Notes: a model not told the origin generated them from the sequence alone. DNA of 62,180 bases, filler included, from 5 parts of 5 records of this genome joined end to end with filler, not necessarily neighbours in it; one strand, 5' to 3'. Counted from the first letter of the whole stretch, positions 8,252 through 22,220 are shown. Made by a program: numbers and translations.

Positions 8252-9100
8252 ATGAAAAGATTCTATTTCTCATTGTTTTTACTGGTTTTACCCATACTTC
8301 TGGCCGGCGGTTGCACCCGTCTGGTTATGCCCATGGCTTCCGCCATGATCCCCGGTTTCACCGACGCTTTTTTTGAGGAATGCGATCTGAAGCTGGCCGG
8401 AGAATCCCTCCCCGCGGAACTCAAACTGATGGAAGGCCTTCTAAAGAATGATCCGGAAAATCAGAAAATCCTGACCGCTCTCTGTATGGGATTTACAGGC
8501 TATGCCATGCTCTTTGTGGAAGATGAAAACCCGGAAAGGGCCTCCAGGCTGTATCTTCGGGCCAGAACTTACGGGCTGAAGGCCATGGGTATTGAAACCG
8601 CCGGTTCACGTCAAATGCTTGACCAGATAAAGAAAATGCCCAGGGAGAAGATTGAAATGCTTTTCTGGACCACCATGGCCTGGAATGCCTGGGTCAACCT
8701 GAACCTGGACAAACCCTCAGCCATCGGCGAGAGCACCCTTGCGGAGGCCTGCCTGAAACGCGTACTGGAAATTGAACCCGACTTCTATTATGGCGCACCT
8801 TATGTGCTCATGGGTACCATATTGGCGGCACGACCTGAAATGCTGGGTGGAAACGCGCCGAAAGCAAAAAAATGTTTTGAAAAAGCCATCACCTTGAGTG
8901 ACGGTAAATTCCTTTTGGCGCAATATTATTTTGCCCGCTACTACGCGGTCAGGGTTCAGGACAAAGCCCTGTTCTTCAGTTTGATTAAAGCGGTTGCCGA
9001 GGCACGGCCCGATGACCTTAAGGAGGCCTGCCTCATCAACCAGGCGGTCAAACAAAAAACGGCAGCCCTCGCTGAAATGGCGGATGAACTGTTTTTATAA
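8252..9100 (+). CDS. TRAP transporter TatT component (TPR lipoprotein)
   Basis: Lipobox LAGGC; ECDLKLAGESLPAELKLMEGLL, YLRARTYGL, RPEMLGGN, YYARYYAV-type motifs; directly upstream of dctPQM. Confidence 0.85.
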   Translation: MKRFYFSLFLLVLPILLAGGCTRLVMPMASAMIPGFTDAFFEECDLKLAGESLPAELKLMEGLLKNDPENQKILTALCMGFTGYAMLFVEDENPERASRLYLRARTYGLKAMGIETAGSRQMLDQIKKMPREKIEMLFWTTMAWNAWVNLNLDKPSAIGESTLAEACLKRVLEIEPDFYYGAPYVLMGTILAARPEMLGGNAPKAKKCFEKAITLSDGKFLLAQYYFARYYAVRVQDKALFFSLIKAVAEARPDDLKEACLINQAVKQKTAALAEMADELFL

Positions 9101-9107
9101 CCATCAA

Positions 9108-9177
9108 CAGGGGACAGTTGTCAGAGAGCAGGATGAAAATTGAAGAAGCTGGAAACTGAAAACCGGCAACTGCCTAC
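9108..9177. repeat. Heptamer-periodic imperfect inverted repeat (CAGnnnn x4 ... CTGnnnn x4)
   Basis: CAG at 9108, 9115, 9122, 9129; CTG/CCG at 9149, 9156, 9163, 9170. Confidence 0.6.
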
Positions 9178-9192
9178 GGATACGGAGATTTT

Positions 9193-10209
9193 ATGAAAAA
9201 GACAATATTTCACATGGTTCTTCTTTTGGGCTTAGGGTGCTTTATGGCCCTCCATTCACCTGTGTCCGCAGGGAAAAAGCCCGAATATCTGATCAAATTT
9301 GCCACGGTGGCCCCGGAAGGGAGTACCTGGGTCAAACAGATTCGAAAGGTCGATAAAGAGCTCAGGGAAAAAAGCGGCGGCCGGTTGGGCCTTGCCATTT
9401 ATGCCGGCGGTATCGCAGGCGATGAACTGGACGTCCTCAAGAAAATGAGGATCGGCCAGATTCAGTGTGCGGCTTTTTCAGGGGTCGGTTTTGGAAAAAT
9501 TCTGCCCATGGTCCGGGTGCTGGATCTTCCCTATCTTTTCAGAAATGACCAGGAGGTGGACCAGGTTCACGGGGAGCTCTTTACCTTTTTTGCAGACCAG
9601 TTTAAAAAAAAAGGGTTCACGCTTCTGGCCTGGACCGAGGTGGGGGATGTCAATATCTTCTCCAGGAAATCCATCGGCAGTCTGAACGATCTCAAGGGTC
9701 TCAAAATATGGGCCTGGGCCGGTGACCCCATTGCAAAGGAGACGTTTGTCACCATGGGGGTCAACCCCATCCCGCTGCCCGTTACCGATGTGAACACGGC
9801 GCTGAACACGGGGATGATCGACACGGTCTATGCACCGCCACTGGGGGCACTGGCCCTTCAATGGCACGCCAAACTGTCATATATGATGGGTCTCCCCCTG
9901 GTTCATTCAACCGGCGCCATATTGCTCTCCTCAAGATATTATAAAAAATTGCCGCCGGATTTGGCCGCCCTGCTTCAGAAAACCATGAAAAAAGCCATGG
10001 CCGACCTCACGGAGACACTGCGGAGGCAAAGAGAAGAAGCCGTGCAGGTGATCCGGGAGAGCGGCATTACCGTCATTCCCGTTGAGGGAGAGGCCCGTAA
10101 ACCTTTTTACGCCATTCACACGGAAGTGGCACGAAAACTGGCCGGCAAAATCTACCCTGAAAAACTCCTGTTAAGGGTTTATGAAATTTTAAACAGGCCC
10201 GGTTCCTGA
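9193..10209 (+). CDS. dctP: TRAP transporter substrate-binding protein (DctP/TatP)
   Basis: IKFATVAPEGSTW, YAGGIAGDELDVLKKMRIGQI, ALNTGMIDTVY, ALALQW. Confidence 0.9.
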   Translation: MKKTIFHMVLLLGLGCFMALHSPVSAGKKPEYLIKFATVAPEGSTWVKQIRKVDKELREKSGGRLGLAIYAGGIAGDELDVLKKMRIGQIQCAAFSGVGFGKILPMVRVLDLPYLFRNDQEVDQVHGELFTFFADQFKKKGFTLLAWTEVGDVNIFSRKSIGSLNDLKGLKIWAWAGDPIAKETFVTMGVNPIPLPVTDVNTALNTGMIDTVYAPPLGALALQWHAKLSYMMGLPLVHSTGAILLSSRYYKKLPPDLAALLQKTMKKAMADLTETLRRQREEAVQVIRESGITVIPVEGEARKPFYAIHTEVARKLAGKIYPEKLLLRVYEILNRPGS

Positions 10210-10227
10210 CAGGGATTGCTCTGGGAA

Positions 10228-10761
10228 ATGCCCATGAAGACACTCGAATGCATCGACCGGGCCCTGGCAAAGATTGAAGGGTGGCTGATCATCTTGTTGC
10301 TCTGGACAATGGTGGTGCTGACATTTGTTCAGGTGGGCCTCAGAAGTCTTTATACCCACGGCCATTTTTTCTGGGCCAATGAAATGCTGGGGGATCTGGA
10401 TTGGTCAGGCCCCTTGGTCCAACTGCTGGTTCTGTGGCTAACTTTCCTGGGATCATCACGCCTTACCAGGACAGGAAAACACATCAAAATAGACCTGTTT
10501 TCAACCCTTCTGCCACCCAAATGGCTTCCGCTCAGAGGGTTTATCCTGGCGGTGGTCTCGCTGTTCATCATCGGCATCATGATTAATGTATGTATCGATT
10601 ATGTGATGATGGAGATGGAATTCGGGGGCACCAGCCTCTTTTATCTCCCCAGTTGGGTGGGACAAATGATCCTGCCCATCGGATTCACGCTGCTGTTTTT
10701 TCGTTTCCTGGTCAAAGCCATCAATCAAGGGACACAGGTGTTTAGAGGCCTTTCAAAATGA
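10228..10761 (+). CDS. dctQ: TRAP transporter small permease
   Basis: About four TM helices, LVLWLTFLG...HIKIDL motif; located between dctP and dctM. Confidence 0.85.
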   Translation: MPMKTLECIDRALAKIEGWLIILLLWTMVVLTFVQVGLRSLYTHGHFFWANEMLGDLDWSGPLVQLLVLWLTFLGSSRLTRTGKHIKIDLFSTLLPPKWLPLRGFILAVVSLFIIGIMINVCIDYVMMEMEFGGTSLFYLPSWVGQMILPIGFTLLFFRFLVKAINQGTQVFRGLSK

Positions 10762-12107: not shown

Positions 12108-14141
12108 CTATTCAGGCTTAATGCTAAGCATTTGCAACTTAAGCGACCCTTTTGTGGATCTTGGTGCGGTTCTAAGAATAGTGGTGTTGGGGGTCTGATC
12201 TGCAAATGTTGAATCCCAGCCGCCCATAAGTGTCAAAGATTTTGACTCACCCAGTGAAATGCTTTCAGAGTAGGTTCCCTGTGCAATTTTTATGGCCGTT
12301 CCTGTCTCCGCGGCGTCTATTGCCTCCTGGATGGTGGTAAAGCACAGCGTGTTGCCTCCACAGGTCTCATCGTCTTTATTCACGTATATGACTGAATTAA
12401 GACACGTGGCTGTTGTCTGCGAGCCCAGATTTGTCCAATCCGTTTCAATTCCGTCTCCGTTTCTCGCTTTGACTCTGTAAACATACGTTTTTTCACATTC
12501 CAAATTCTGGTTTTTCCAGCTGAGTTCCTCGGTCCAACCGGAATTCTTGTTGTTTGTCGTGTTTTCACAGTAATAATATGTGGTTTCCGGGTTCTCGTTG
12601 GCTTTCCAGTTGGCCTGAATAGCTGTTTCCGTGACGTTTGAAAAAGCGGATGTCCCGGCCGCATTTGCATATGTATATTTATAGACCGTGGGTGATGAGA
12701 AAGATGTTTCCGAGGGGCTGGCAGCTGAATTGCGTGCTTTCACCCTGTAGCCGTATTGATGATTGGGCTTAAGACCTCCGTCGGCATAGGAAGTGGAGGC
12801 CTGCCAATCTGAGTCTGAGCCGCCTGTGCCACCAGTGGGACTATCAACGAAATCAAAGAAGTAGGTAACCGGCGGATTGGTATTGTCCCTGGCCGTAGTC
12901 GCTGTCATGGAGATGCTTGTGGACGTCGTGGCATTGGGTTCCGAGGCCCAAGTCATGGGATTTGGGTCAGGCGGGTCTGTATTTTGAACCGTGATAGTGC
13001 CGGAGGCCGTGGAAGCAAGTCCACCTTTTTCTGCCTGGATTTGGGCGCTACCCAGAGCATTTCCCGTGAATGTGGCGCTTTTGCTGTCACCGGCCGGGAC
13101 CAGATCCGAATCTTGTACGCCGCCCTGTTTTGCTTTTAAGCTCCATGCATCAGCCGCTACGTTCCCAATAAAGTTGCCGACAGCATCTCGGGATATGGCG
13201 TAGGCCGTCACCTTTTCACCAACCACAAGGGTTTGGTCAGGGATCACGGTGCCATTCCCATCGCCGGACGGCTCCACCCGAATAATGGCTTCGGGTCCGA
13301 CCTGGACTACAATCTCGTCGGAGTTTGGGGAAGCCGTAAGTCCTGTGGCTGAACCAGCGATTGTGATGCTGCTTGCGGCGTTACATTTGATATCCGTAAA
13401 GCTTGCCAGCCCGGCACCCGCCCCTTTCACCGAGGTGCCTTCCAGGCTTCCGGATGACGGTGTAACCGTTACTTCATCCGTGTCCGCAGTGCGATTACCA
13501 TAAAGGTCTGCGATTTCGATACTGAATTCCGGCCATACCGATCCGGCCTGCACCGGGCTGGATGGGTTCTTAACCCACAGAAGCTTGTTTTTTTCACTGG
13601 GAAAGACGGTTATGTCCAGGTCGTCTTCGTCAGGGGTGGTCACCGATCCTTCAGTGGCTTTGACATGGGCATTCTCAGCCTTGTAGAGCTTTAAATTGCT
13701 GGAGGAGGTGCCGCTTGAAAAGTTCAGGATCGTGTTGGCCCCAAACGCCACGTCAGTACCGCTTTTGTCCGCGCAGGTGGGTTCATGCGGGTTGGGCGAT
13801 GCTGATGCCCCCGAAAACACGAGAGTCTTATCGCCACTATAACTGGAAATCGTATTGCCGGAGACATCGCAGGCCGTGATTGTAATTTCTTGCTGTCCTC
13901 CTGCCTGCATGGTGGATGATCCAGTAATCTTGAAATGATGGGCACCGGCTCCATTGGCCCTATAGCGGGTCATGTTTCCGGCTGAATCATATGAATATTC
14001 CAAAGAGGAAGAATCTTCATACGCCACTTTTGTGAGTCTGTTCAAACTGTCATATGTGTACTGGATGGTTCCTGCATCTGCCGACAGCGGCAGAAAAGAT
14101 ACCAACAAAAGGAGGAATGAAATCTTGATGAACCAAAACAT
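12108..14141 (-). CDS. Secreted protein: signal peptide + single YD/RHS hairpin + several Ig-like and FN3-like domains + short C-terminal domain
   Basis: MFWFIKISFLLLLVSFLPLSADA|GTIQYTYDSLNRLTKVAYEDSSSLEYSYDSAGN; two FN3-like Y-x-YRVKARN motifs. The start may instead be at 14210 or 14216, overlapping the RHS stop. Confidence 0.8.
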   Translation of the reverse strand: MFWFIKISFLLLLVSFLPLSADAGTIQYTYDSLNRLTKVAYEDSSSLEYSYDSAGNMTRYRANGAGAHHFKITGSSTMQAGGQQEITITACDVSGNTISSYSGDKTLVFSGASASPNPHEPTCADKSGTDVAFGANTILNFSSGTSSSNLKLYKAENAHVKATEGSVTTPDEDDLDITVFPSEKNKLLWVKNPSSPVQAGSVWPEFSIEIADLYGNRTADTDEVTVTPSSGSLEGTSVKGAGAGLASFTDIKCNAASSITIAGSATGLTASPNSDEIVVQVGPEAIIRVEPSGDGNGTVIPDQTLVVGEKVTAYAISRDAVGNFIGNVAADAWSLKAKQGGVQDSDLVPAGDSKSATFTGNALGSAQIQAEKGGLASTASGTITVQNTDPPDPNPMTWASEPNATTSTSISMTATTARDNTNPPVTYFFDFVDSPTGGTGGSDSDWQASTSYADGGLKPNHQYGYRVKARNSAASPSETSFSSPTVYKYTYANAAGTSAFSNVTETAIQANWKANENPETTYYYCENTTNNKNSGWTEELSWKNQNLECEKTYVYRVKARNGDGIETDWTNLGSQTTATCLNSVIYVNKDDETCGGNTLCFTTIQEAIDAAETGTAIKIAQGTYSESISLGESKSLTLMGGWDSTFADQTPNTTILRTAPRSTKGSLKLQMLSIKPE

Positions 14142-14199
14142 TCTTTCGCCAAAAACAACAGCAATCGCGTAATTAACCGAGGCAAAAGACTGTCTGCAA

Positions 14200-17100
14200 T
14201 CAGTTCGCATAGACACCCCGGCGGTTTACGTTGAGGGAGTTTACATTCGGAATTTCACTTAAGTCTTTTACCAGCACGGAGTATTTGCTGAGCGTCTGGG
14301 TAAAACTCCTGTACAAGTTGCCGGCATTGTGTCTGATGTCCATTAGCATTTTATCTTTTTCTGAGGTCCTGTATCGCGTCTGAGAACGTGCGGCCACTTC
14401 CCTGTAGATTCTGCTTTCAATGTAAGACCGAGCCTGATTGTTGATAACGTTGGAATTCAAAAGTTTCGAGAATTCACTCATGTAATAGCTGCTTGCATAA
14501 CTAAAGACTAGAGAACGATCGATTCTTTTAGAAGTACCTGATTCTTTGTTTTCTTTCGGTTGGGAAGCGTTAGTATCTGATAGGCTTTCCTTCAGGGTTG
14601 TCTTCGTAATTTGGGGCACTGGAAAATGAAACTCAGAGGATCTTGCCATTGCAGACGTTCTGTTGGAGGTTGTTATTAATTCACATCCATCGCAATCATT
14701 ATCGGGATCACCGCCAATTTCTAAATTGTTGTCTGAATTGTTGCTATCTAAGCCTGATCCTTTTTTATAATAATCGAGAGTTTTAAAAGCCCTTTTTAAA
14801 TTATCGGGATGCCTAAAAATTTCGGATAGCGGTGTAACTATACTCAATGCACTGATTTGAAGTCCTTTTTTGCTAAATGCTTCCTTTTTCATCTCTTCTG
14901 ATCCGACGAGTGCAGTAATTAATGGAGGACCCCATATAGCAGCCGTAAATGCAGCAACTCCAATTATTATAACAGCAAGAGCTATCTCTCCATTAGGATC
15001 AATGGCACTGTTAGGGTTATTATTGGCATATGAGTAGAGATTTAATCTTTGAGAATTATTTATGCCTCCGAAAATTGGATCAAAACTCAAAAAGCGCTTT
15101 ATTCCAGGATCATAATACCTTGCCCGCATAAAATAGAGTCCATTGGGCTCAGCCATTACCCCGTACTTGCCTACATAGGTGAAAGGGTTTTCGTAAACCC
15201 CTTCGCTTCTTGCCGCTTCTCCGAAAGGCAGATAGGCATACTGATCCGTTATGTTTCCGGAATGATCAGTCAAAGCCACAGTGCTCCCGACGGTATCGTA
15301 ATGGTAATAAACGGGTATTCCAGTTGAGGCGTCGATGCTGTAAAGGAGACCATCGCCATGAACAAAATACTTGCTTATGTTGTTACTGCCGTCCATTTCG
15401 GCCAGGATGTTTTCCATCCCGGCGTTTAGATCCAGCAGATATCGGGTCTCCACACCGTCCCGCGTGGCTTTCAACCGGTGCCCGTCGCTGTTGTAGCCAT
15501 ATTCCTGAACATGGGTTCCGTCGCTCACTCTCGTCAGCATGTTCCGGTAATCATAGGCATATTGGGTTGTGATTTCCCCGTCTTTTCTGCTGATTCTATT
15601 CCCTTTGCCGTCATAGACAAACGTTGTGTCGTTCGCGGAAAGCAACTGATTTCCTTCATCATGAGCAAAGGCCACATCTGCCGCTTCAACCGTCGGTGAC
15701 AACGGTTGCGTCGCGGTCATAGCGGTACGGTTTCCGTTTTCATCGAGGGTCATGTCATAGCTGGCGATGACATCTCCATTGGGGTCCCTGTCCACTTTTG
15801 AAACAAGCCTTCCGGCATCATCGTAAGTGTAATGAACGGTTGCGCCGTTTCCCATATCGGTTTGAATCAATCTTCCAGACTGGTCGTATTGATAGGAGGT
15901 CTGGACATAATTCCAGTCCTGCACCGTGCTCAAACGATCGAGTTTGTCGTAGCTGTAGGTGACTTTCCTGTTGGCCCCCGGATACTGTATTACAGTCCTG
16001 TTTCCATTGGGGTCATACATGTAACCGATGGTTTTTCCGAATATATCGGCTACGCTTGAGAGGGCATCCCGGTTATTGTAGGCATAACTTGTAGTCCCCA
16101 TTGAATCTGTCACGGTCAGACGATTGCCATTGGCGTCGTATTGATAGCTGGACACAACCGTACCGGCGTCCGGATAGCTCAACGTTTTAAAGCGGTTGTT
16201 GGCATCGTAGGTATAGGTGCGGGTGGACGTGCCATCCGGTTCAACCAGCGCAATCAGATTGCCCACCGGGTCGTAATGCATTTGCTTTGTGTTGCCCAGG
16301 GGATCCGTCACCTGTATCAGACGATTCAGTTTGTCGTAGGTATAATTCGTCACATTTCCACGGGTGTCGGTTAAGGATGTGCGATTTCCCAAGGCATCAT
16401 AGGTGGCTTCGACGGTCCCGGACGCCGTATCCGTCACCTTTATCAACCGACCCAACGCATCATATTCATAAAGTGTTTCGTTCCCCTTAGGATCCGTCAC
16501 TTTCACAAGACGGCCCAATTTGTCGTATGTGCTGGTTGTCACATGGTTCAAGGGATCGGTCGTGGATACCAGTCGGTTAAGAATATCGTATGCATAGCGG
16601 GTCGTCTTGCCTGTTGGATCGGTCGTGGTCAGAAGGTTTCCGTTTTCATCATATGTCCGGCTTGTAAAATCTCCAAAAGGGTTCGTAACCTTTGTCAAGC
16701 GATTCAGGTCATCATATTTGAAGGTAGTTGTATAACCGTTTGCATCCGTTGCTGAAATAAGATTGCCATTGGCATCGTATTGATTTCTCACCACATTGCC
16801 GTCCGCATCCCGCTGTTGAATAACGTTTCCCGCCTCGTCATACACCACGGAGGTCACTTTTCCGCGCCGATTGGTCACGTCCGTGCGTCGGTCCATTGAA
16901 TCATAGGTGTAGGTTTCCGTTTCGTTTAAGGGCGTGGTTTCGCTTATAAGACGGTTTTTCGCATCGTACCCGAAGGTGGTGCTATTCCCGTTGGCGTCTG
17001 TATGCTCGGTCTTATTCCCGTTATCATCATAGGTGAAAGAGACGGTGCCTCCGAGGGCGTCGACAACTGACGTCAGGCGATTCAAACTGTCGTACTCATA

Positions 17101-19440
17101 GGCGGATCCCCTTCCCAGGGGATGGCTTTCCGTCTTCTTTCTGCTAACCCCGTCGTAGGTGAAGGTGCTTTCATTGCCCATGGCATCGGTGACCTTTAAG
17201 AGGTTTCCGGAACTGTCATATTCGTATGTTGTTACACCGCCTTTGGCGTCTGTCTTTGTGAGCCGCTGACCGTAGCCATCGTAGGTGAAGGTCGTGGTGT
17301 TGTTTAACGGGTCCGTGATTGTGAGCAGGTTTCCCTCGGTGTCATAGGTGAAGGTGGTCGTGTTACTTTTGGCATCGGTCTTGCTCAAGGGGTTGTTATT
17401 GGCGTCATAAGTGGCGGATGTCTTGTGCCCCAGCGGGTCCGTTTTGGTCTGGACGTTTCCGTTGCCGTCGTTTTGGTAAGCGGTCACATTTCCGTTCTTG
17501 TCGGTAACTTTGGACAGGCTCCCCCGTTCGTTATATTCATAATAGGCGGAAAATCCTAAGGGGTCCTTTTCTCGAATCAGCCTCAGAAAATCATCATAAT
17601 AATGATAAGAACTGCTGCCGTTGGGATGGACGATCTGGGTGGTACGGGTGGAAACATCATAGCTGTAGAGGGTCTCATTGCCGAGGGCATCCCGCTGGCT
17701 GGCAATCACACGGCGCTGATCGTCGTAGACGTTCGAGTAGACGGCATTCTCCTTGGGATCCGTGAGGGTCAGCATCTGATGATTTTCATCATAGGTGTAA
17801 ACCGTGGTCTTGCCGTCCAGATTGGTGGAAGTGTTTAGATTTCCGTTGAGATCATAGGTAAAGGTAACGGATCTACCGATGGGATCCAGAATACGGGTAA
17901 TGCGGTCCTCCGCATCATATGAAAAGTCGATATCCCGTCCTACCGTATCCGTAATGTGGGTCAGAATGCCATTGGTATACGTAAAGGTCAGTCTGTTTCC
18001 ATTTTCATCCTCTATGGCGGAAAGGTGGTTGGCGGCATTAAAATGGTATTGGATCATATCCTTTCGAAGGACCGTAAAGGTGCCGTCAGGATTTTCCACA
18101 AGGGTATCGTAGACGCCTTTCATGGGCGTATATCCTTCTGTTTCGTCATAGGTCCAGGTGGCCGCATTGCCATCTCCCCACCGAACGGTGACCTCATTTT
18201 TCGATCCGATTGAAAGGGACACATTATAGTTGTGTGTCCATCCGTAACTCAAAGGTCCGTCCCGATCATCCTGGGAATTGTAGGTCCGGTCGAATCCGAA
18301 GGGGAGGCCTCGCCCCGGTATCTCAAGGTCCGTTACAGCGTAAAAGAAATTACCGGTGGCTGTATTCACCGAATCTACGCTGTAGCCGGCGAAGGTGTCC
18401 CCGCCAAAGGTGCTTTCCGCCTTTGTGAGGACGATGTCATGAGCAATACTGTTTTTACAAAGGGTAAGCGCTTTCTGATAGGTCACATATCCCGGACTCG
18501 GGGTGGTAATGGAGACGATTTCGTAGTTGCCGGGTGCCATAGATGAAAAGCGGTATTGTCCGTCAATATCCGTTGCAGCGGTAGCGCCGTTGTCAAGGGT
18601 TATGACCGCCAGCGGCATGGGTTCATCGAACAATCCATCTTTAACAACGCCTGAAATGGACATATTGGTCCCGTTGCAGACAATGTAATCTTCGGTTGAG
18701 ATTGCCCCTGCGTTTCCCGCCTCATCTTGAGCAAAGGTTTTGACGGTGGCGTCATCGGTGAGCGTGATAGGCGATGTATATACGGGTGAACCGGTTGTGG
18801 GGTCTGTATTGTCGGTGGTGTAATAGATCGTCGCTGTTTCGCTGGCGGTCAGTGTGACCTGTGGCTTTTGCATGTACGTGCCGCCGGCGGGTGAAATCGT
18901 AACGGCGGGCGCAGTCATGTCCAGTATGATCGAATCGCTGCACACACCGGACCAATCGCCCAGTCCGTTTTTGTAGGTGGCGTATACGGTCCGTTCCCCT
19001 TCGTTTGAGACCAGGGTCCAGTCTTTTGTCGGGGAGTAGGCTTCAGGAGCCGACCAGCTGACGCCGTTGTTGGAGAATTTCATTTGAGCACAACCGCTCT
19101 TATGACCGCAAATAAGGCTTAAAGTGACGTCTGTGCTGTTGGTGGCCGGTTCGTCATTGTTGATGAAAATGCCGGACAGCATGTGGTTTTGGGGAGCTAA
19201 CGCCTGACCCGTGAGGCTGTAGCTGGAGCCGGACATCATACCGGTGGGCTGAATGCTGATGACGTCCGAGGCTATCTGATAAGTGGAGGAGGACCTCATC
19301 CCGCTTCCCTGGTTTTGAGAAATGGATGAGACGGTGTAATTGGAACTGGCCATGGCCGCGAGAGCAGGGGGGGGAATGAGAAGCACAAAGAAAGAAATGG
19401 CATAGCAGATAATCTTGAAATGGAGATTTCGTTGGCTCAT
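14200..19440 (-). CDS. RHS/YD-repeat protein with signal peptide, Ig-like stalk, DUF6531-like domain, RHS core and variable C-terminal domain
   Basis: Signal peptide ...PPPALA; IYYTTDNTDPT (Fn3-associated/chitobiase-like); DSVNTATGNF...RTYNS; dozens of YD repeats; core LYFMRARYYDP...NLYSYANNNPNSAIDPNG (DPNG at 14989-15000). Confidence 0.93.
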   Translation of the reverse strand: MSQRNLHFKIICYAISFFVLLIPPPALAAMASSNYTVSSISQNQGSGMRSSSTYQIASDVISIQPTGMMSGSSYSLTGQALAPQNHMLSGIFINNDEPATNSTDVTLSLICGHKSGCAQMKFSNNGVSWSAPEAYSPTKDWTLVSNEGERTVYATYKNGLGDWSGVCSDSIILDMTAPAVTISPAGGTYMQKPQVTLTASETATIYYTTDNTDPTTGSPVYTSPITLTDDATVKTFAQDEAGNAGAISTEDYIVCNGTNMSISGVVKDGLFDEPMPLAVITLDNGATAATDIDGQYRFSSMAPGNYEIVSITTPSPGYVTYQKALTLCKNSIAHDIVLTKAESTFGGDTFAGYSVDSVNTATGNFFYAVTDLEIPGRGLPFGFDRTYNSQDDRDGPLSYGWTHNYNVSLSIGSKNEVTVRWGDGNAATWTYDETEGYTPMKGVYDTLVENPDGTFTVLRKDMIQYHFNAANHLSAIEDENGNRLTFTYTNGILTHITDTVGRDIDFSYDAEDRITRILDPIGRSVTFTYDLNGNLNTSTNLDGKTTVYTYDENHQMLTLTDPKENAVYSNVYDDQRRVIASQRDALGNETLYSYDVSTRTTQIVHPNGSSSYHYYDDFLRLIREKDPLGFSAYYEYNERGSLSKVTDKNGNVTAYQNDGNGNVQTKTDPLGHKTSATYDANNNPLSKTDAKSNTTTFTYDTEGNLLTITDPLNNTTTFTYDGYGQRLTKTDAKGGVTTYEYDSSGNLLKVTDAMGNESTFTYDGVSRKKTESHPLGRGSAYEYDSLNRLTSVVDALGGTVSFTYDDNGNKTEHTDANGNSTTFGYDAKNRLISETTPLNETETYTYDSMDRRTDVTNRRGKVTSVVYDEAGNVIQQRDADGNVVRNQYDANGNLISATDANGYTTTFKYDDLNRLTKVTNPFGDFTSRTYDENGNLLTTTDPTGKTTRYAYDILNRLVSTTDPLNHVTTSTYDKLGRLVKVTDPKGNETLYEYDALGRLIKVTDTASGTVEATYDALGNRTSLTDTRGNVTNYTYDKLNRLIQVTDPLGNTKQMHYDPVGNLIALVEPDGTSTRTYTYDANNRFKTLSYPDAGTVVSSYQYDANGNRLTVTDSMGTTSYAYNNRDALSSVADIFGKTIGYMYDPNGNRTVIQYPGANRKVTYSYDKLDRLSTVQDWNYVQTSYQYDQSGRLIQTDMGNGATVHYTYDDAGRLVSKVDRDPNGDVIASYDMTLDENGNRTAMTATQPLSPTVEAADVAFAHDEGNQLLSANDTTFVYDGKGNRISRKDGEITTQYAYDYRNMLTRVSDGTHVQEYGYNSDGHRLKATRDGVETRYLLDLNAGMENILAEMDGSNNISKYFVHGDGLLYSIDASTGIPVYYHYDTVGSTVALTDHSGNITDQYAYLPFGEAARSEGVYENPFTYVGKYGVMAEPNGLYFMRARYYDPGIKRFLSFDPIFGGINNSQRLNLYSYANNNPNSAIDPNGEIALAVIIIGVAAFTAAIWGPPLITALVGSEEMKKEAFSKKGLQISALSIVTPLSEIFRHPDNLKRAFKTLDYYKKGSGLDSNNSDNNLEIGGDPDNDCDGCELITTSNRTSAMARSSEFHFPVPQITKTTLKESLSDTNASQPKENKESGTSKRIDRSLVFSYASSYYMSEFSKLLNSNVINNQARSYIESRIYREVAARSQTRYRTSEKDKMLMDIRHNAGNLYRSFTQTLSKYSVLVKDLSEIPNVNSLNVNRRGVYAN

Positions 19441-19542: not shown

Positions 19543-20616
19543 TTATTTGACCCGCATTATCCATACCATGCCTGAAATTGGGCATGGATTGGTGCCGTTT
19601 AGGTTGGGAATTACATAGTTATTATAAACGCTTTCATCATCCAGCAGCGTCTGACCGTTCATTTCAACCCAGTCGGAGGAAAGTGGGGGCGTTCTTCCAA
19701 TGGTGTACGAGCACTGCGTAGAAATTGCCGTAGCTTCCTGAAATGATACCTGGGTCGAGCTGTCCACAGAAGAGATCTTTGCCCAGAGCTTCTCATTGGG
19801 ACTGAAGTTGATAGTCCGATCACTGATACTCAGTGATCCTTGCTGTATGGAGACCTTCCATACCGGTTTTGCGGGATTGGGATTATTGCGGGTTCTTTCC
19901 TGCCAGGTTGAATTACTTTCACCAATATTATGTTCGAATTGAGTTCCATCAGCATAATAGAAATAGAGAAAAGCTTCACATTGCCCGCTACATGCTGTCC
20001 TTAGCGTGACACTATCTACAAGAAGTCCTAGAATATGATCATCGGAAAAAATGGCCTCTAATGGATCAGTTGGGTAGGAAATCATGCAGGATTTACCAGC
20101 TGCGTCACTTTGGAAGGATGCGGTCCCGTCGATAAGCGTCTTGTTGGTGCACCCTGTAACATTTCCTGAGTAAAGGGATTCTGTTGTTTTCAACCAATTT
20201 GTAATTGTTCCAACAGGTACTTCTTCATGCTCGACCTCTTCGGCCCAATATGCGTGCGCCCCGCTTGTTATCCTCTGTCTCGGCGTCATTTCGGAATCGG
20301 ATCCCACTTTGACACCAAGATACAGTGTTTCGCCTTTTAAAACCGATGACGTTAATGGTTGAACAGTACCCAGTCTCACATTAAACAGCCCATCTGACAC
20401 CTGAACTGTTTGAACTTCGCTCCATTGGGCCGTACCGCCGCTTCCCGAATCATAGATGGAAAATGTCATTTCCAAGGAAGTGTTATTCACCGGATTGCCG
20501 CTTGCGTCGTTCAGCATACCCTGGTAGCTGATGAGGTTCGCCCCAGCATAGCAATAGGAGGAAAAATGAAAGAGGCAAAACAATAGCCAAAAAAAGATAA
20601 CAGAAAACTTTTTCAT
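19543..20616 (-). CDS. Secreted fibre/adhesin-like protein with N-terminal ISYQG...PRQR domain and an interrupted tail-collar-like domain
   Basis: Signal peptide; ISYQGMLNDASG...GLFNVRLG...EMTPRQRITS; VPVGTITNW...DWVEMNGQTL...IPNLNG...WIMRVK. SD AAGGTGAG before ATG 20616. Confidence 0.7.
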   Translation of the reverse strand: MKKFSVIFFWLLFCLFHFSSYCYAGANLISYQGMLNDASGNPVNNTSLEMTFSIYDSGSGGTAQWSEVQTVQVSDGLFNVRLGTVQPLTSSVLKGETLYLGVKVGSDSEMTPRQRITSGAHAYWAEEVEHEEVPVGTITNWLKTTESLYSGNVTGCTNKTLIDGTASFQSDAAGKSCMISYPTDPLEAIFSDDHILGLLVDSVTLRTACSGQCEAFLYFYYADGTQFEHNIGESNSTWQERTRNNPNPAKPVWKVSIQQGSLSISDRTINFSPNEKLWAKISSVDSSTQVSFQEATAISTQCSYTIGRTPPLSSDWVEMNGQTLLDDESVYNNYVIPNLNGTNPCPISGMVWIMRVK

Positions 20617-20999
20617 CGGACTCACCTTAAGCATATCTCAGAACATTGACCATTTTAACAAATTAAAATTAGGGTTTGCGCGCACACTCAAACGAAATTG
20701 AATGCCTGCCCTGTATTGGTGTCCCAACAAATCTAAAAAGAAAATGAAATGTATCTCAAAACTTTTCCGTATGTCAAGCATGCTTTCTTTTTGATAATAG
20801 TGACTAAAATTTAGACCCATATCCACCTTTTTGATGTTGTTTTCACAACAATGTTTACCAATAAAAGCTCCAAATCAGAGTTGTCAAAGCATTCAAAAAG
20901 TGTCCGGTTTTGGCCGGGGGAATCATCTGATCAAAGAACACACATTACTGTAAACTCAGAAACAATTCGTTTTGAACTGCCTCCCAAAGGATGCTGGTA

Positions 21000-21251
21000 T
21001 CAGAGTTCTATCAAACCGATTCCCATTGCCACTGCCACGGCATGTGACCTGTTTCGCGCGTTAAGCTTTCGAATGATGTTTTTTATGTGAAAATTCACTA
21101 CGCTCTCACTTCTTTCCAGAATTACCGATATTTCCCATGACGTTTTTCCTTCTTTCAACCAGTTGAGGATCTCCAGTTCCCTTTGGGTCAAGTGAGGCGC
21201 TTTGATTCGTTTTTTGTTTTTCAAGAGACTTTTATGCGACGATTTCTGCAT
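21000..21251 (-). CDS. Stand-alone LuxR/GerE-type helix-turn-helix protein
   Basis: LTQRELEILNWLKEGKTSWEISVILERSESVVNFHIKNIIRKLNARNRSHAV; GGAGGAG upstream. Confidence 0.85.
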   Translation of the reverse strand: MQKSSHKSLLKNKKRIKAPHLTQRELEILNWLKEGKTSWEISVILERSESVVNFHIKNIIRKLNARNRSHAVAVAMGIGLIEL

Positions 21252-21326
21252 GACCGGAGATACTCCTCCCTGCGCATGCCGAGGGTCACTTTGTCGTTGC
21301 GCATTGGGGTACGCACCAAATAGAGG

Positions 21327-21375
21327 AATATATACTGAAATGGAATGGTCTTGTAACCTACCAAAAATAGTAGGA
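21327..21375 (-). promoter_or_regulatory. lux-box-like palindrome abutting a putative -35, with a -10 downstream (promoter of HTH-only luxR)
   Basis: ACCTACCAAAAATAGTAGGA (21356-21375) fits NNCT-N12-AGNN with CCTAC/GTAGG arms. On the minus strand TTACAA (21356-21351) is followed by TATATA/TATATT at 21334-21327. Confidence 0.65.
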
Positions 21376-21464
21376 AGCCATTTATTTCGGATCAGTATCG
21401 GGAAGTCCGAATAACGGGGAATTTCTATCGTTTTCCTAACCTTTCCCGCGCGGACTCAGATTAT

Positions 21465-22220
21465 CTATAATGATATCAATCCGTTTTGAATTGACAACGC
21501 TACGGCATGCGTTCTGTTCATTGCATTCAGTTTTCTAAGAATGTTCTTTATATGAAAATTTACAGTGTTTTCGCTAATGCTTAATATATTGGATATGTCC
21601 CATGATGACTTTCCGTCTTTCAGCCATTCTAATATTTCTCGTTCTCGGTTTGTTATTTTAAATTTACTGATACTGATATCAATATCTAAAAAACGCCTTA
21701 TCACTTCAGCAAAATGAGGGACAATACATTTGATTATGACTCTAGTCCTATTATCGTTATCGATATTCTTTCCGGAACATGATAGGCTTGACCCATATCT
21801 TAATTGTGGATCAAGAACACCATATGTTACGCCTTTATAAAGGCCATGGTCTTTGAGATCCGTTATAGGCGCTGTGTTATATGTTTTTGGATCTCTTTTT
21901 TCCAATTCTGACCAATTCACAACATCACGCGTCAACAATACCTCTTTAAGTACCGGATCTATCAGGTAGTATCCTTTTGACATATATCTTTCAATAAAAC
22001 CTTCAGGATAGTTTAGATTGATGGGAACACCAGGATTATTTCCATCTTCATTATCTACTGGATTGAGTAACCCGCAAAATGCCGCATCAAATGGAATCAA
22101 TGAATTTAACTTCAATACAAGAGATGTGAATTCAGATTGACGTTTGCATGTGGTTAGACCATATATTATTTCCAGTAAGGTTAACGCATCATTCTTGGAA
22201 AGCCATTTTTTGATATCCAT
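21465..22220 (-). CDS. LuxR-family regulator with autoinducer-binding domain (no adjacent luxI)
   Basis: NYPEGFIERY...IDPV...VNWS...HGL signal-binding motifs plus C-terminal HTH ITNREREILEWLKDGKSSWDIS. Confidence 0.9.
   Translation of the reverse strand: MDIKKWLSKNDALTLLEIIYGLTTCKRQSEFTSLVLKLNSLIPFDAAFCGLLNPVDNEDGNNPGVPINLNYPEGFIERYMSKGYYLIDPVLKEVLLTRDVVNWSELEKRDPKTYNTAPITDLKDHGLYKGVTYGVLDPQLRYGSSLSCSGKNIDNDNRTRVIIKCIVPHFAEVIRRFLDIDISISKFKITNREREILEWLKDGKSSWDISNILSISENTVNFHIKNILRKLNAMNRTHAVALSIQNGLISL

Follow-up and report, generated by a model that had tools for sequence, protein, structure and literature searches.

In a stretch of DNA of 62,180 nucleotides (nt), filler included, which joins five parts of five records of one genome and is here called the window, we found a gene for a secreted protein that begins with a single small unit of the YD repeats typical of RHS proteins. 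This unit is here called the YD tag, and the gene lies on the minus strand directly downstream of a gene for a secreted RHS polymorphic toxin. The tagged gene encodes a signal peptide and a YD tag with no further YD units and fits a newly defined class of proteins, which is genetically coupled to Sec-type DUF6531-RHS toxins across phyla. We put the probability at roughly 0.5 that it represents a class of secreted proteins, not described so far, which are accessory to DUF6531-RHS toxins exported by Sec and whose tag would dock on the RHS cocoon of the toxin.

The tagged gene and its product

The open reading frame (ORF) of the tagged gene extends to a GTG, and the predicted start is the ATG at position 14141, which gives a protein of 677 amino acids (aa). 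An earlier note on this DNA, made from the sequence alone, had given the start of the mature protein as GTIQYTYDSLNRLTKVAYEDSSSLEYSYDSAGNMTRY, and in the translation this sequence indeed stood right after the signal peptide. The same note described a single hairpin of about 1.5 YD repeats. A YD unit was found at the mature N-terminus, but it comprised two hairpins (four strands) rather than one. Pfam RHS_repeat matched the protein a single time (residues 55-88 in the numbering from the GTG, E 2.9e-7, 31.1 bits against a cut-off of 22), and the NCBIfam match to the tag was the generic YD repeat TIGR01643 alone (17.6 bits against a cut-off of 15.8). With our own hidden Markov model (HMM) of the YD unit, 21 aa long and trained on the repeats of the adjoining RHS protein, we counted 2 units, i.e. 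two hairpins, versus 33 units in the adjoining RHS protein. Neither Pfam nor our HMM nor the translation revealed additional YD units, a DUF6531 domain or a PxxxxDPxG core motif in the tagged protein. With one Pfam stretch it has neither the long shell-building YD array of RHS/YD-shell proteins nor their RHS-associated core with PxxxxDPxG and DUF6531 plug.

The switch to Ig/FN3 domains after the YD unit, also proposed in the earlier note, was borne out by a Pfam fn3 match inside an Ig-like body (Table 1). Homologues of the window protein aligned to the Ig-like and FN3-like modules only. An AlphaFold2 model of the mature protein, computed from alignment A4, was all-beta, with a mean predicted local distance difference test score (pLDDT) of 73.1 and a predicted template modelling score (pTM) of 0.44. 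Residues 371-560 were modelled confidently, with block means mostly of 86-98. Four short strands were placed in the tag (residues 3-7, 13-18, 25-28 and 34-38; block pLDDT 61-72), and the final 64 residues (12111-12302, minus strand) had a pLDDT below 50. The C-terminal module IYVNKDDETCGG... also occurred in the tagged protein of locus L011 (36% over 74 aa). We dropped a candidate beta-helix start at the C-terminus, as the beta-helix homologues aligned to the FN3-like modules instead.

The YD tag as a portable module

Among the 120 homologues listed for the whole window protein, four (P0014, P0018, P0019 and P0024) also opened with a signal peptide and a lone YD unit, and unrelated domains followed this unit. 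The tag, with the 34-aa consensus xTYTYDxLNRLTxVxYxxGxxIxYTYDAAGNR, was found directly behind the signal peptide in many otherwise unrelated secreted proteins. An alignment of 33 tags (A3; that of the window and 32 others) had invariant Y7, D8, D29, G32 and N33 and a mean column identity of 46%, and conservation ended directly after GN[RLM]. The distance from the hydrophobic core of the signal peptide to the first aromatic residue had a median of 7 residues in 77 distinct tags, and a distance this short places the tag right at the start of the mature protein. The YD tag is a portable module in many phyla and is not peculiar to the window locus.

The tag region alone was a poor query for such proteins: 28 of 31 candidates from a homologue search were multi-repeat RHS proteins, and lone tags were not recovered. 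When the PDB was searched by sequence with this profile of the tag, all 31 matches had at least 664 aa and were Rhs, teneurin or Tc proteins, with no solved lone-tag protein among them.

Genetic linkage to RHS toxin genes

We scanned one genome per prokaryotic species with an alignment of five N-termini (A1; the window protein and the four homologues named above). At least 618 stretches were matched, 256 were confirmed as relatives, and the best 80 were kept, corresponding to 79 loci. A tagged ORF was required to have no more than three YD units, to show the tag pattern in its first 160 residues and to contain a hydrophobic window (at least 8 of 12 residues) in the 40 residues before the tag, and an RHS-type ORF to have at least four YD units after translation of all frames; both calls depend on our home-made HMM and patterns. 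The 43 loci without a qualifying tagged ORF, where the match mostly lay inside a multi-repeat RHS gene, were left out of the counts. The remaining 36 loci held 39 tagged ORFs, and the carriers belonged to Nitrospirota, Thermodesulfobacteriota, Alpha-, Beta- and Gammaproteobacteria, Bacteroidota, Bacillota, Acidobacteriota, Gemmatimonadota and Planctomycetota. One carrier, Anaerovirgula multivorans SCA (L042), is a cultured organism.

An adjoining RHS toxin gene, one of the features by which the class is defined, was present in the window and at 24 of the 31 assessable loci, where an RHS-type ORF preceded the tagged ORF on the same strand. In 14 of these 24 loci the RHS frame stopped no more than 480 nt before the tag. 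Two further loci had the RHS-type ORF upstream on the opposite strand (L020 and L051) and one had it just downstream (L052). None was detected at four loci whose upstream flank was 1.8 kb or longer (L009, L019, L047 and L050), nor at five more, where the upstream flank was too short to judge. Among the four, L050 carried a Pfam-positive RHS ORF 1.8 kb downstream, both L009 and L019 extend over the edge of their contigs, and L047 had just 740 nt of downstream DNA.

As a replication, a profile of the 33 tags in A3 was run over three whole genomes (G001, G002 and G003) and over metagenome contigs. All four strong lone tags in G002 (4.8 Mb) lay downstream of RHS-type frames and thereby accounted for four of the six such frames in this genome. 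With about six RHS genes in about 4.8 Mb, chance adjacency would be well under 1% per gene (an estimate, no formal test). Four tags in G001 were found directly downstream of RHS genes (L011, L083, L084 and L085) and one was ambiguous (L080), while the three tags in G003 all fell within one RHS cluster. The metagenome contigs contributed 33 tagged ORFs in 32 loci, and at 14 of these the DNA upstream was 1.8 kb or longer. An RHS-type gene was located upstream on the same strand at ten of these 14 loci and downstream at one, in a sample not fully independent of the genomes (L113 equals L017 in tag sequence and spacing, and L144 and L150 are close to L053 and L052).

The earlier note had suggested surveying whether lone-YD proteins consistently adjoin DUF6531-RHS genes, and had regarded their common occurrence away from any RHS gene as counter-evidence. 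An RHS-type gene was present at 27 of the 31 assessable genome loci and at 11 of the 14 metagenome loci, with DUF6531 in 18 of the 19 partner proteins scanned. Lone-YD proteins with no RHS gene nearby were the minority (4 of 31 and 3 of 14, respectively), and the outcome of the suggested survey is strongly positive.

Domains of the tagged proteins and their RHS partners

In a Pfam search of 37 tagged proteins RHS_repeat was recognized at E of 0.001 or below in 32 of them, never with more than two stretches. Besides the tag, 11 of the 37 had no Pfam domain. The bodies of the remaining ones contained InlB B-repeat, FN3, several Ig types, TSP3, Calx-beta, LRR_5/DUF285, FGE-sulfatase, MopE, Laminin_G_3, Lcl_C, TIG, PKD, cadherin-like, CHB_HEX_C, BACON, PEGA, cohesin and dockerin domains and an NHL propeller. 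The modules after the tag are extracellular binding modules. The NHL propeller belonged to a tagged protein in L013 (4334-7168) with 11 NHL repeats, to which the teneurin NHL model also matched, together with PEGA and cohesin domains; it might represent a teneurin-like accessory domain supplied in trans.

Sizes ranged from 68 aa, in a protein consisting of the tag only, to more than 2000 aa. Tag-only proteins were encoded in L004 (68 aa) and by an 87-aa frame in L052, and the tagged protein of L067 (about 104 aa when mature) consisted of the tag and a dockerin-like calcium loop. In L004 (7994-13578) the 68-aa gene is part of a threefold unit of tag-only gene, orphan RHS C-terminal cassette and gene for a small membrane or secreted protein, and transposase genes flank the array.

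Besides the DUF6531 domains mentioned above, 19 of 23 partner RHS proteins had a C-terminal PxxxxDPxG motif followed by a tail of 78-304 aa. As far as can be judged from sequence, the partners are complete canonical toxins. Parts of the RHS N-termini resembled parts of tagged proteins: residues 88-202 of the window RHS protein were 44% identical (over 117 aa) to a segment of the tagged protein of L019, the CHB_HEX_C region of the window RHS protein matched the L023 tagged protein, and N-terminal modules of the window RHS protein also had matches in L056. N-terminal modules of RHS proteins therefore recur on tagged proteins elsewhere, and the same parts are used in cis or in trans, which would fit a physical partnership. 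In L071 we further observed a 609-aa ORF (8825-10651; two TIG domains and CarboxypepD_reg) with a lone YD unit in the middle of the protein (residues 399-429), which stops where a 1771-aa RHS frame starts. This ORF could be a frameshifted RHS N-terminus or an alternative way to supply a YD unit.

The position of the tagged gene raises the question of an immunity function. The earlier note had placed it in the slot of an immunity gene beside an RHS shell, and it does follow the stop codon of a complete DUF6531-RHS gene after 58 nt on the same strand, and therefore occupies the usual immunity-gene position. No other ORF lies between the two genes. A DctM gene in convergent orientation follows at most 76 nt beyond the 3' end of the tagged gene, and the locus consequently has no separate downstream immunity gene. 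The tagged protein might confer immunity to the RHS toxin, being exported to where the toxin acts. This would agree with the tagged proteins that lack a Pfam domain beyond the tag, and with bacterial teneurin-like proteins, for which the diverse gene directly downstream of the toxin gene was interpreted as encoding an immunity protein that binds the toxin domain (downstream-gene section of 10.1101/2025.11.11.687626). We still regard such a function as very unlikely for the class, given the range of sizes and the generic adhesion domains. A conserved tag would also be unexpected in proteins that track hypervariable toxins, and in L004 each toxin domain has its own small membrane or secreted protein besides the tag-only gene. 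The window and L011, which are related loci, have the toxin tail in common as well as the C-terminal module of the tagged protein. In the tandem duplicates of L067 identity was 64% between the toxin C-terminal domains, 87% between the tagged proteins and 99% between the cores, values which do not discriminate between immunity and accessory functions. Small tagged proteins without a recognizable domain may have an immunity role.

Origin of the tag

The tag is not a recent DNA copy of the neighboring RHS gene. The best blastn match between the tag and the window RHS gene was 14 nt long (E 0.43), and the tagged gene had neither the DNA in common with the 3' core nor the alternative toxin of an orphan Rhs C-terminal cassette. 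At the protein level, the best match of a tag in the shell of its partner lay at relative positions of 0.15-0.92 with 9-20 identities over 22-40 aligned residues, and no fixed origin within the partner shell was found when we looked for one. Tags of different phyla were more alike than a tag and the repeats of its own partner.

These comparisons bear on the idea of the tag as a remnant or as a handle for recombination, in which it would be RHS-repeat DNA that serves cassette switching and has no role as a protein. The arrangement in L004, where a tag-only gene stands 110-170 nt ahead of each of three orphan RHS C-terminal cassettes, would suit such a handle. We find it hardly credible in view of the missing DNA identity in the window, the closer resemblance of tags to one another than to the repeats of the partner, the conservation at the protein level across phyla, and the signal peptide, which was always present.

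A possible role of the tag

The layout of the class comprises a signal peptide, a 34-aa YD tag of two RHS-type beta-hairpins, a linker and freely exchangeable extracellular binding modules. If the tagged proteins are accessory proteins of the toxins, the tag would after export bind the cognate RHS cocoon, most likely by beta-sheet addition to the RHS repeat strip, similar to the joining of TcB and TcC into one cocoon. The binding modules would thereby be attached in trans and the toxin might gain surface anchoring or target recognition. The tag-only members suggest that the tag rather than the cargo is the essential piece, possibly as a cap or stabilizer.

Taken more broadly, the YD tag might be a general docking tag, in which an N-terminal two-hairpin module extends or caps an RHS beta-strip in trans. 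Sec-exported RHS and teneurin-like toxins would in this case be extracellular machines built in a modular way from two or three parts, and their subunits for receptor binding or anchoring could be exchanged. We propose this tentatively, at somewhat less than even odds. The machine of the window may then include the fibre-like 363-aa protein encoded upstream of the RHS gene (see below). If the general proposal is true, it would supply the targeting device that these toxins seemed to lack. In its boldest form, a pull on the tag via the adhesin could gate the release of the toxin.

Several points weigh against docking of the tag on the RHS cocoon. The surveyed loci were the best-scoring hits and not a random sample. 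No RHS gene was present in the available DNA of L009, L019, L047, L092, L105 and L166, several of which end at a contig edge, and L081 in G001 had none within 10 kb on either side, so that the linkage is not absolute. The adjacency of genes could by itself also be explained by co-regulation. The sequence matches between tag and shell, at no fixed position, gave no hint of a docking site. The free docking edge (the 'open edge' of the shell, on which the strand complementation proposed in the earlier note would take place) is an assumption, since plug domains close both ends of the solved Rhs cocoons according to passages of PMC8765631.

Some of these points would equally suit ordinary surface adhesins that are merely co-regulated with RHS toxins and carry the tag for self-association or for anchoring to the cell surface, with no contact to the RHS protein. 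The bodies are generic adhesion modules, a few tags are far from any RHS gene (L081 and three metagenome loci), and the contact proposed between tag and RHS protein is putative. We consider such adhesins an unlikely explanation, as it would leave unaccounted for why an RHS-type repeat in particular is used, why the RHS gene precedes the tagged gene at 24 of 31 assessable loci in at least eight phyla, and why tag-only proteins exist (L004 and L052).

The tag might also be an export or sorting signal common to both partners, whose YD hairpins are read by one post-Sec route or surface receptor. Its position strictly at the mature N-terminus and the fact that tagged and RHS proteins are both Sec substrates are in line with this, and no delivery route is known for such toxins according to the delivery passages of 10.1101/2025.11.11.687626. 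The pairing occurs in diderms and monoderms (Pseudomonadota, Bacteroidota, Peptococcaceae, Syntrophomonas and Anaerovirgula), which makes a common outer-membrane route unlikely, and no conserved transporter gene was noticed in the loci, for which no systematic search was made. A shared sorting signal therefore appears quite improbable to us.

An accessory role of the tagged proteins would have several consequences. Sec-exported RHS/teneurin-like toxins are widespread, and the tag is a testable candidate for their missing targeting or anchoring subunit. It provides a simple sequence signature for the annotation of such loci and is possibly a small natural peptide for attaching cargo to RHS cocoons. 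A gene that follows an RHS toxin gene is not to be labelled an immunity gene by default.

Gene neighborhood in the window

The RHS gene adjoining the tagged gene is complete (Table 1), and its product begins with a signal peptide. The C-terminal domain had no match in Pfam or NCBIfam. No terminator-like site was seen in the spacer between the RHS gene and the tagged gene.

Table 1. Features of the tagged gene and its upstream neighbors (nt positions in the window; aa positions in the RHS protein)
Feature	Position	Strand	Details
Tagged ORF	12108-14216	-	GTG start, 702 aa
Tagged gene, predicted start	12108-14141	-	ATG at 14141, 677 aa
Signal peptide of tagged protein	14073-14141	-	MFWFIKISFLLLLVSFLPLSADA; Sec-type, 23 aa, ending ...LSADA; from translation
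YD tag	13962-14072	-	GTIQYTYDSLNRLTKVAYEDSSSLEYSYDSAGNMTRY; mature N-terminal extremity; Pfam RHS_repeat and own YD-unit HMM
Variable body of tagged protein	12108-13961	-	stop codon included; Ig-like beta domains, two FN3-like modules, C-terminal module of about 90 aa
Pfam fn3	12435-12644	-	E 5.5e-7; inside the body of the tagged protein
Spacer, RHS stop to tagged gene ATG	14142-14199	-	58 nt; RHS TGA at 14200-14202
Secreted RHS polymorphic-toxin gene	14200-19440	-	complete, 1746 aa; Pfam RHS_repeat in 21 stretches, E 2.8e-143
CHB_HEX_C/Fn3_assoc of RHS protein	aa 184-252	-	
CarboxypepD_reg of RHS protein	aa 261-326	-	
DUF6531 of RHS protein	aa 356-428; 18157-18375	-	Pfam E 9e-22
Core motif of RHS protein	aa 1476-1484; 14989-15015	-	PNSAIDPNG
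C-terminal domain of RHS protein	14200-14988	-	262 aa, hydrophobic helix first
Gene of 363-aa secreted protein	19543-20634	-	102 nt upstream of RHS gene

The 363-aa protein encoded upstream of the RHS gene had no Pfam match. Its N-terminal 75 aa or so weakly matched NCBIfam Bdello_MAT_N (E 4e-6, 26.7 bits against a cut-off of 60), the N-domain of the 'mosaic adhesive trimer' fibre proteins of Bdellovibrio. The protein is possibly a fibre-like adhesin. Homologues were encoded directly upstream of RHS genes in L011 (46% over 176 aa, E 3e-41) and L012 (42% over 153 aa), and the gene order of 363-aa protein, RHS protein and tagged protein is common to the window, L011 (a metagenome-assembled genome, MAG, of Desulfobacterales) and L012 (a Smithellaceae MAG). 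The 363-aa gene is probably in one operon with the RHS gene, and a promoter-like site is located upstream of it (20777-20748). Further upstream of the operon lie, on the minus strand, a gene for a LuxR-type autoinducer-binding regulator and then a second open frame (21003-21455 and 21465-22220). The end of the second frame is 67% identical to the last 63 residues of the regulator, and it looks like a partial duplicate.

The toxin domain of the window RHS protein opens with a membrane-like segment, hydrophobic or rich in Gly and Ala, right after the DPxG cleavage motif, and the RHS tails of L004, L006, L010, L011, L053 and L067 start in a similar way. Tails of this kind may represent a membrane-acting class of toxins.

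Comparison with known systems

Among the papers that came up in full-text searches outside subscription-only literature, judged by title and abstract, none described a lone YD unit behind a signal peptide or a YD-tagged RHS partner. Passages on RHS repeats in Zhang et al. 2012 (PMC3482391) mention no such tagged partners. In 10.1101/2025.11.11.687626 the term 'YD repeat' is absent from the main text, and its section on the downstream gene contains no YD-tagged partner.

Orphan Rhs C-terminal cassettes resemble the tagged gene in lying downstream of a main rhs gene and in containing RHS repeat sequence. They differ in comprising the end of the core with PxxxxDPxG and a toxin, in lacking a signal peptide and in having DNA in common with the main gene, whereas the tagged gene has none of these features. 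By analogy, the tag can also be compared with other docking modules. In cohesin-dockerin pairs a short portable terminal module fixes interchangeable cargo to a scaffold, and in the donor-strand complementation of pili an N-terminal strand completes the sheet of a partner. Neither of these pairs has a sequence relation to the YD tag.

In the Tc (ABC) toxins, as described in passages of PMC8765631, TcB and TcC together form one RHS cocoon, so that a second polypeptide completes the RHS shell, and separate targeting parts are carried. Each Tc partner contributes hundreds of residues to the shell and the complex docks on TcA. The tagged partner, in contrast, would give only two hairpins (about 34 aa) instead of a large shell segment and has its own signal peptide and adhesion modules, and no TcA-like gene was seen.

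The bacterial teneurin-like proteins, as described in 10.1101/2025.11.11.687626, are likewise YD-shell toxins that are exported by Sec and have adhesion domains at the N-terminus. A conserved gene directly follows the toxin gene, and no delivery machinery is evident. The window locus differs from those of the teneurin-like proteins in that its downstream gene carries a conserved YD tag together with adhesin-like content.

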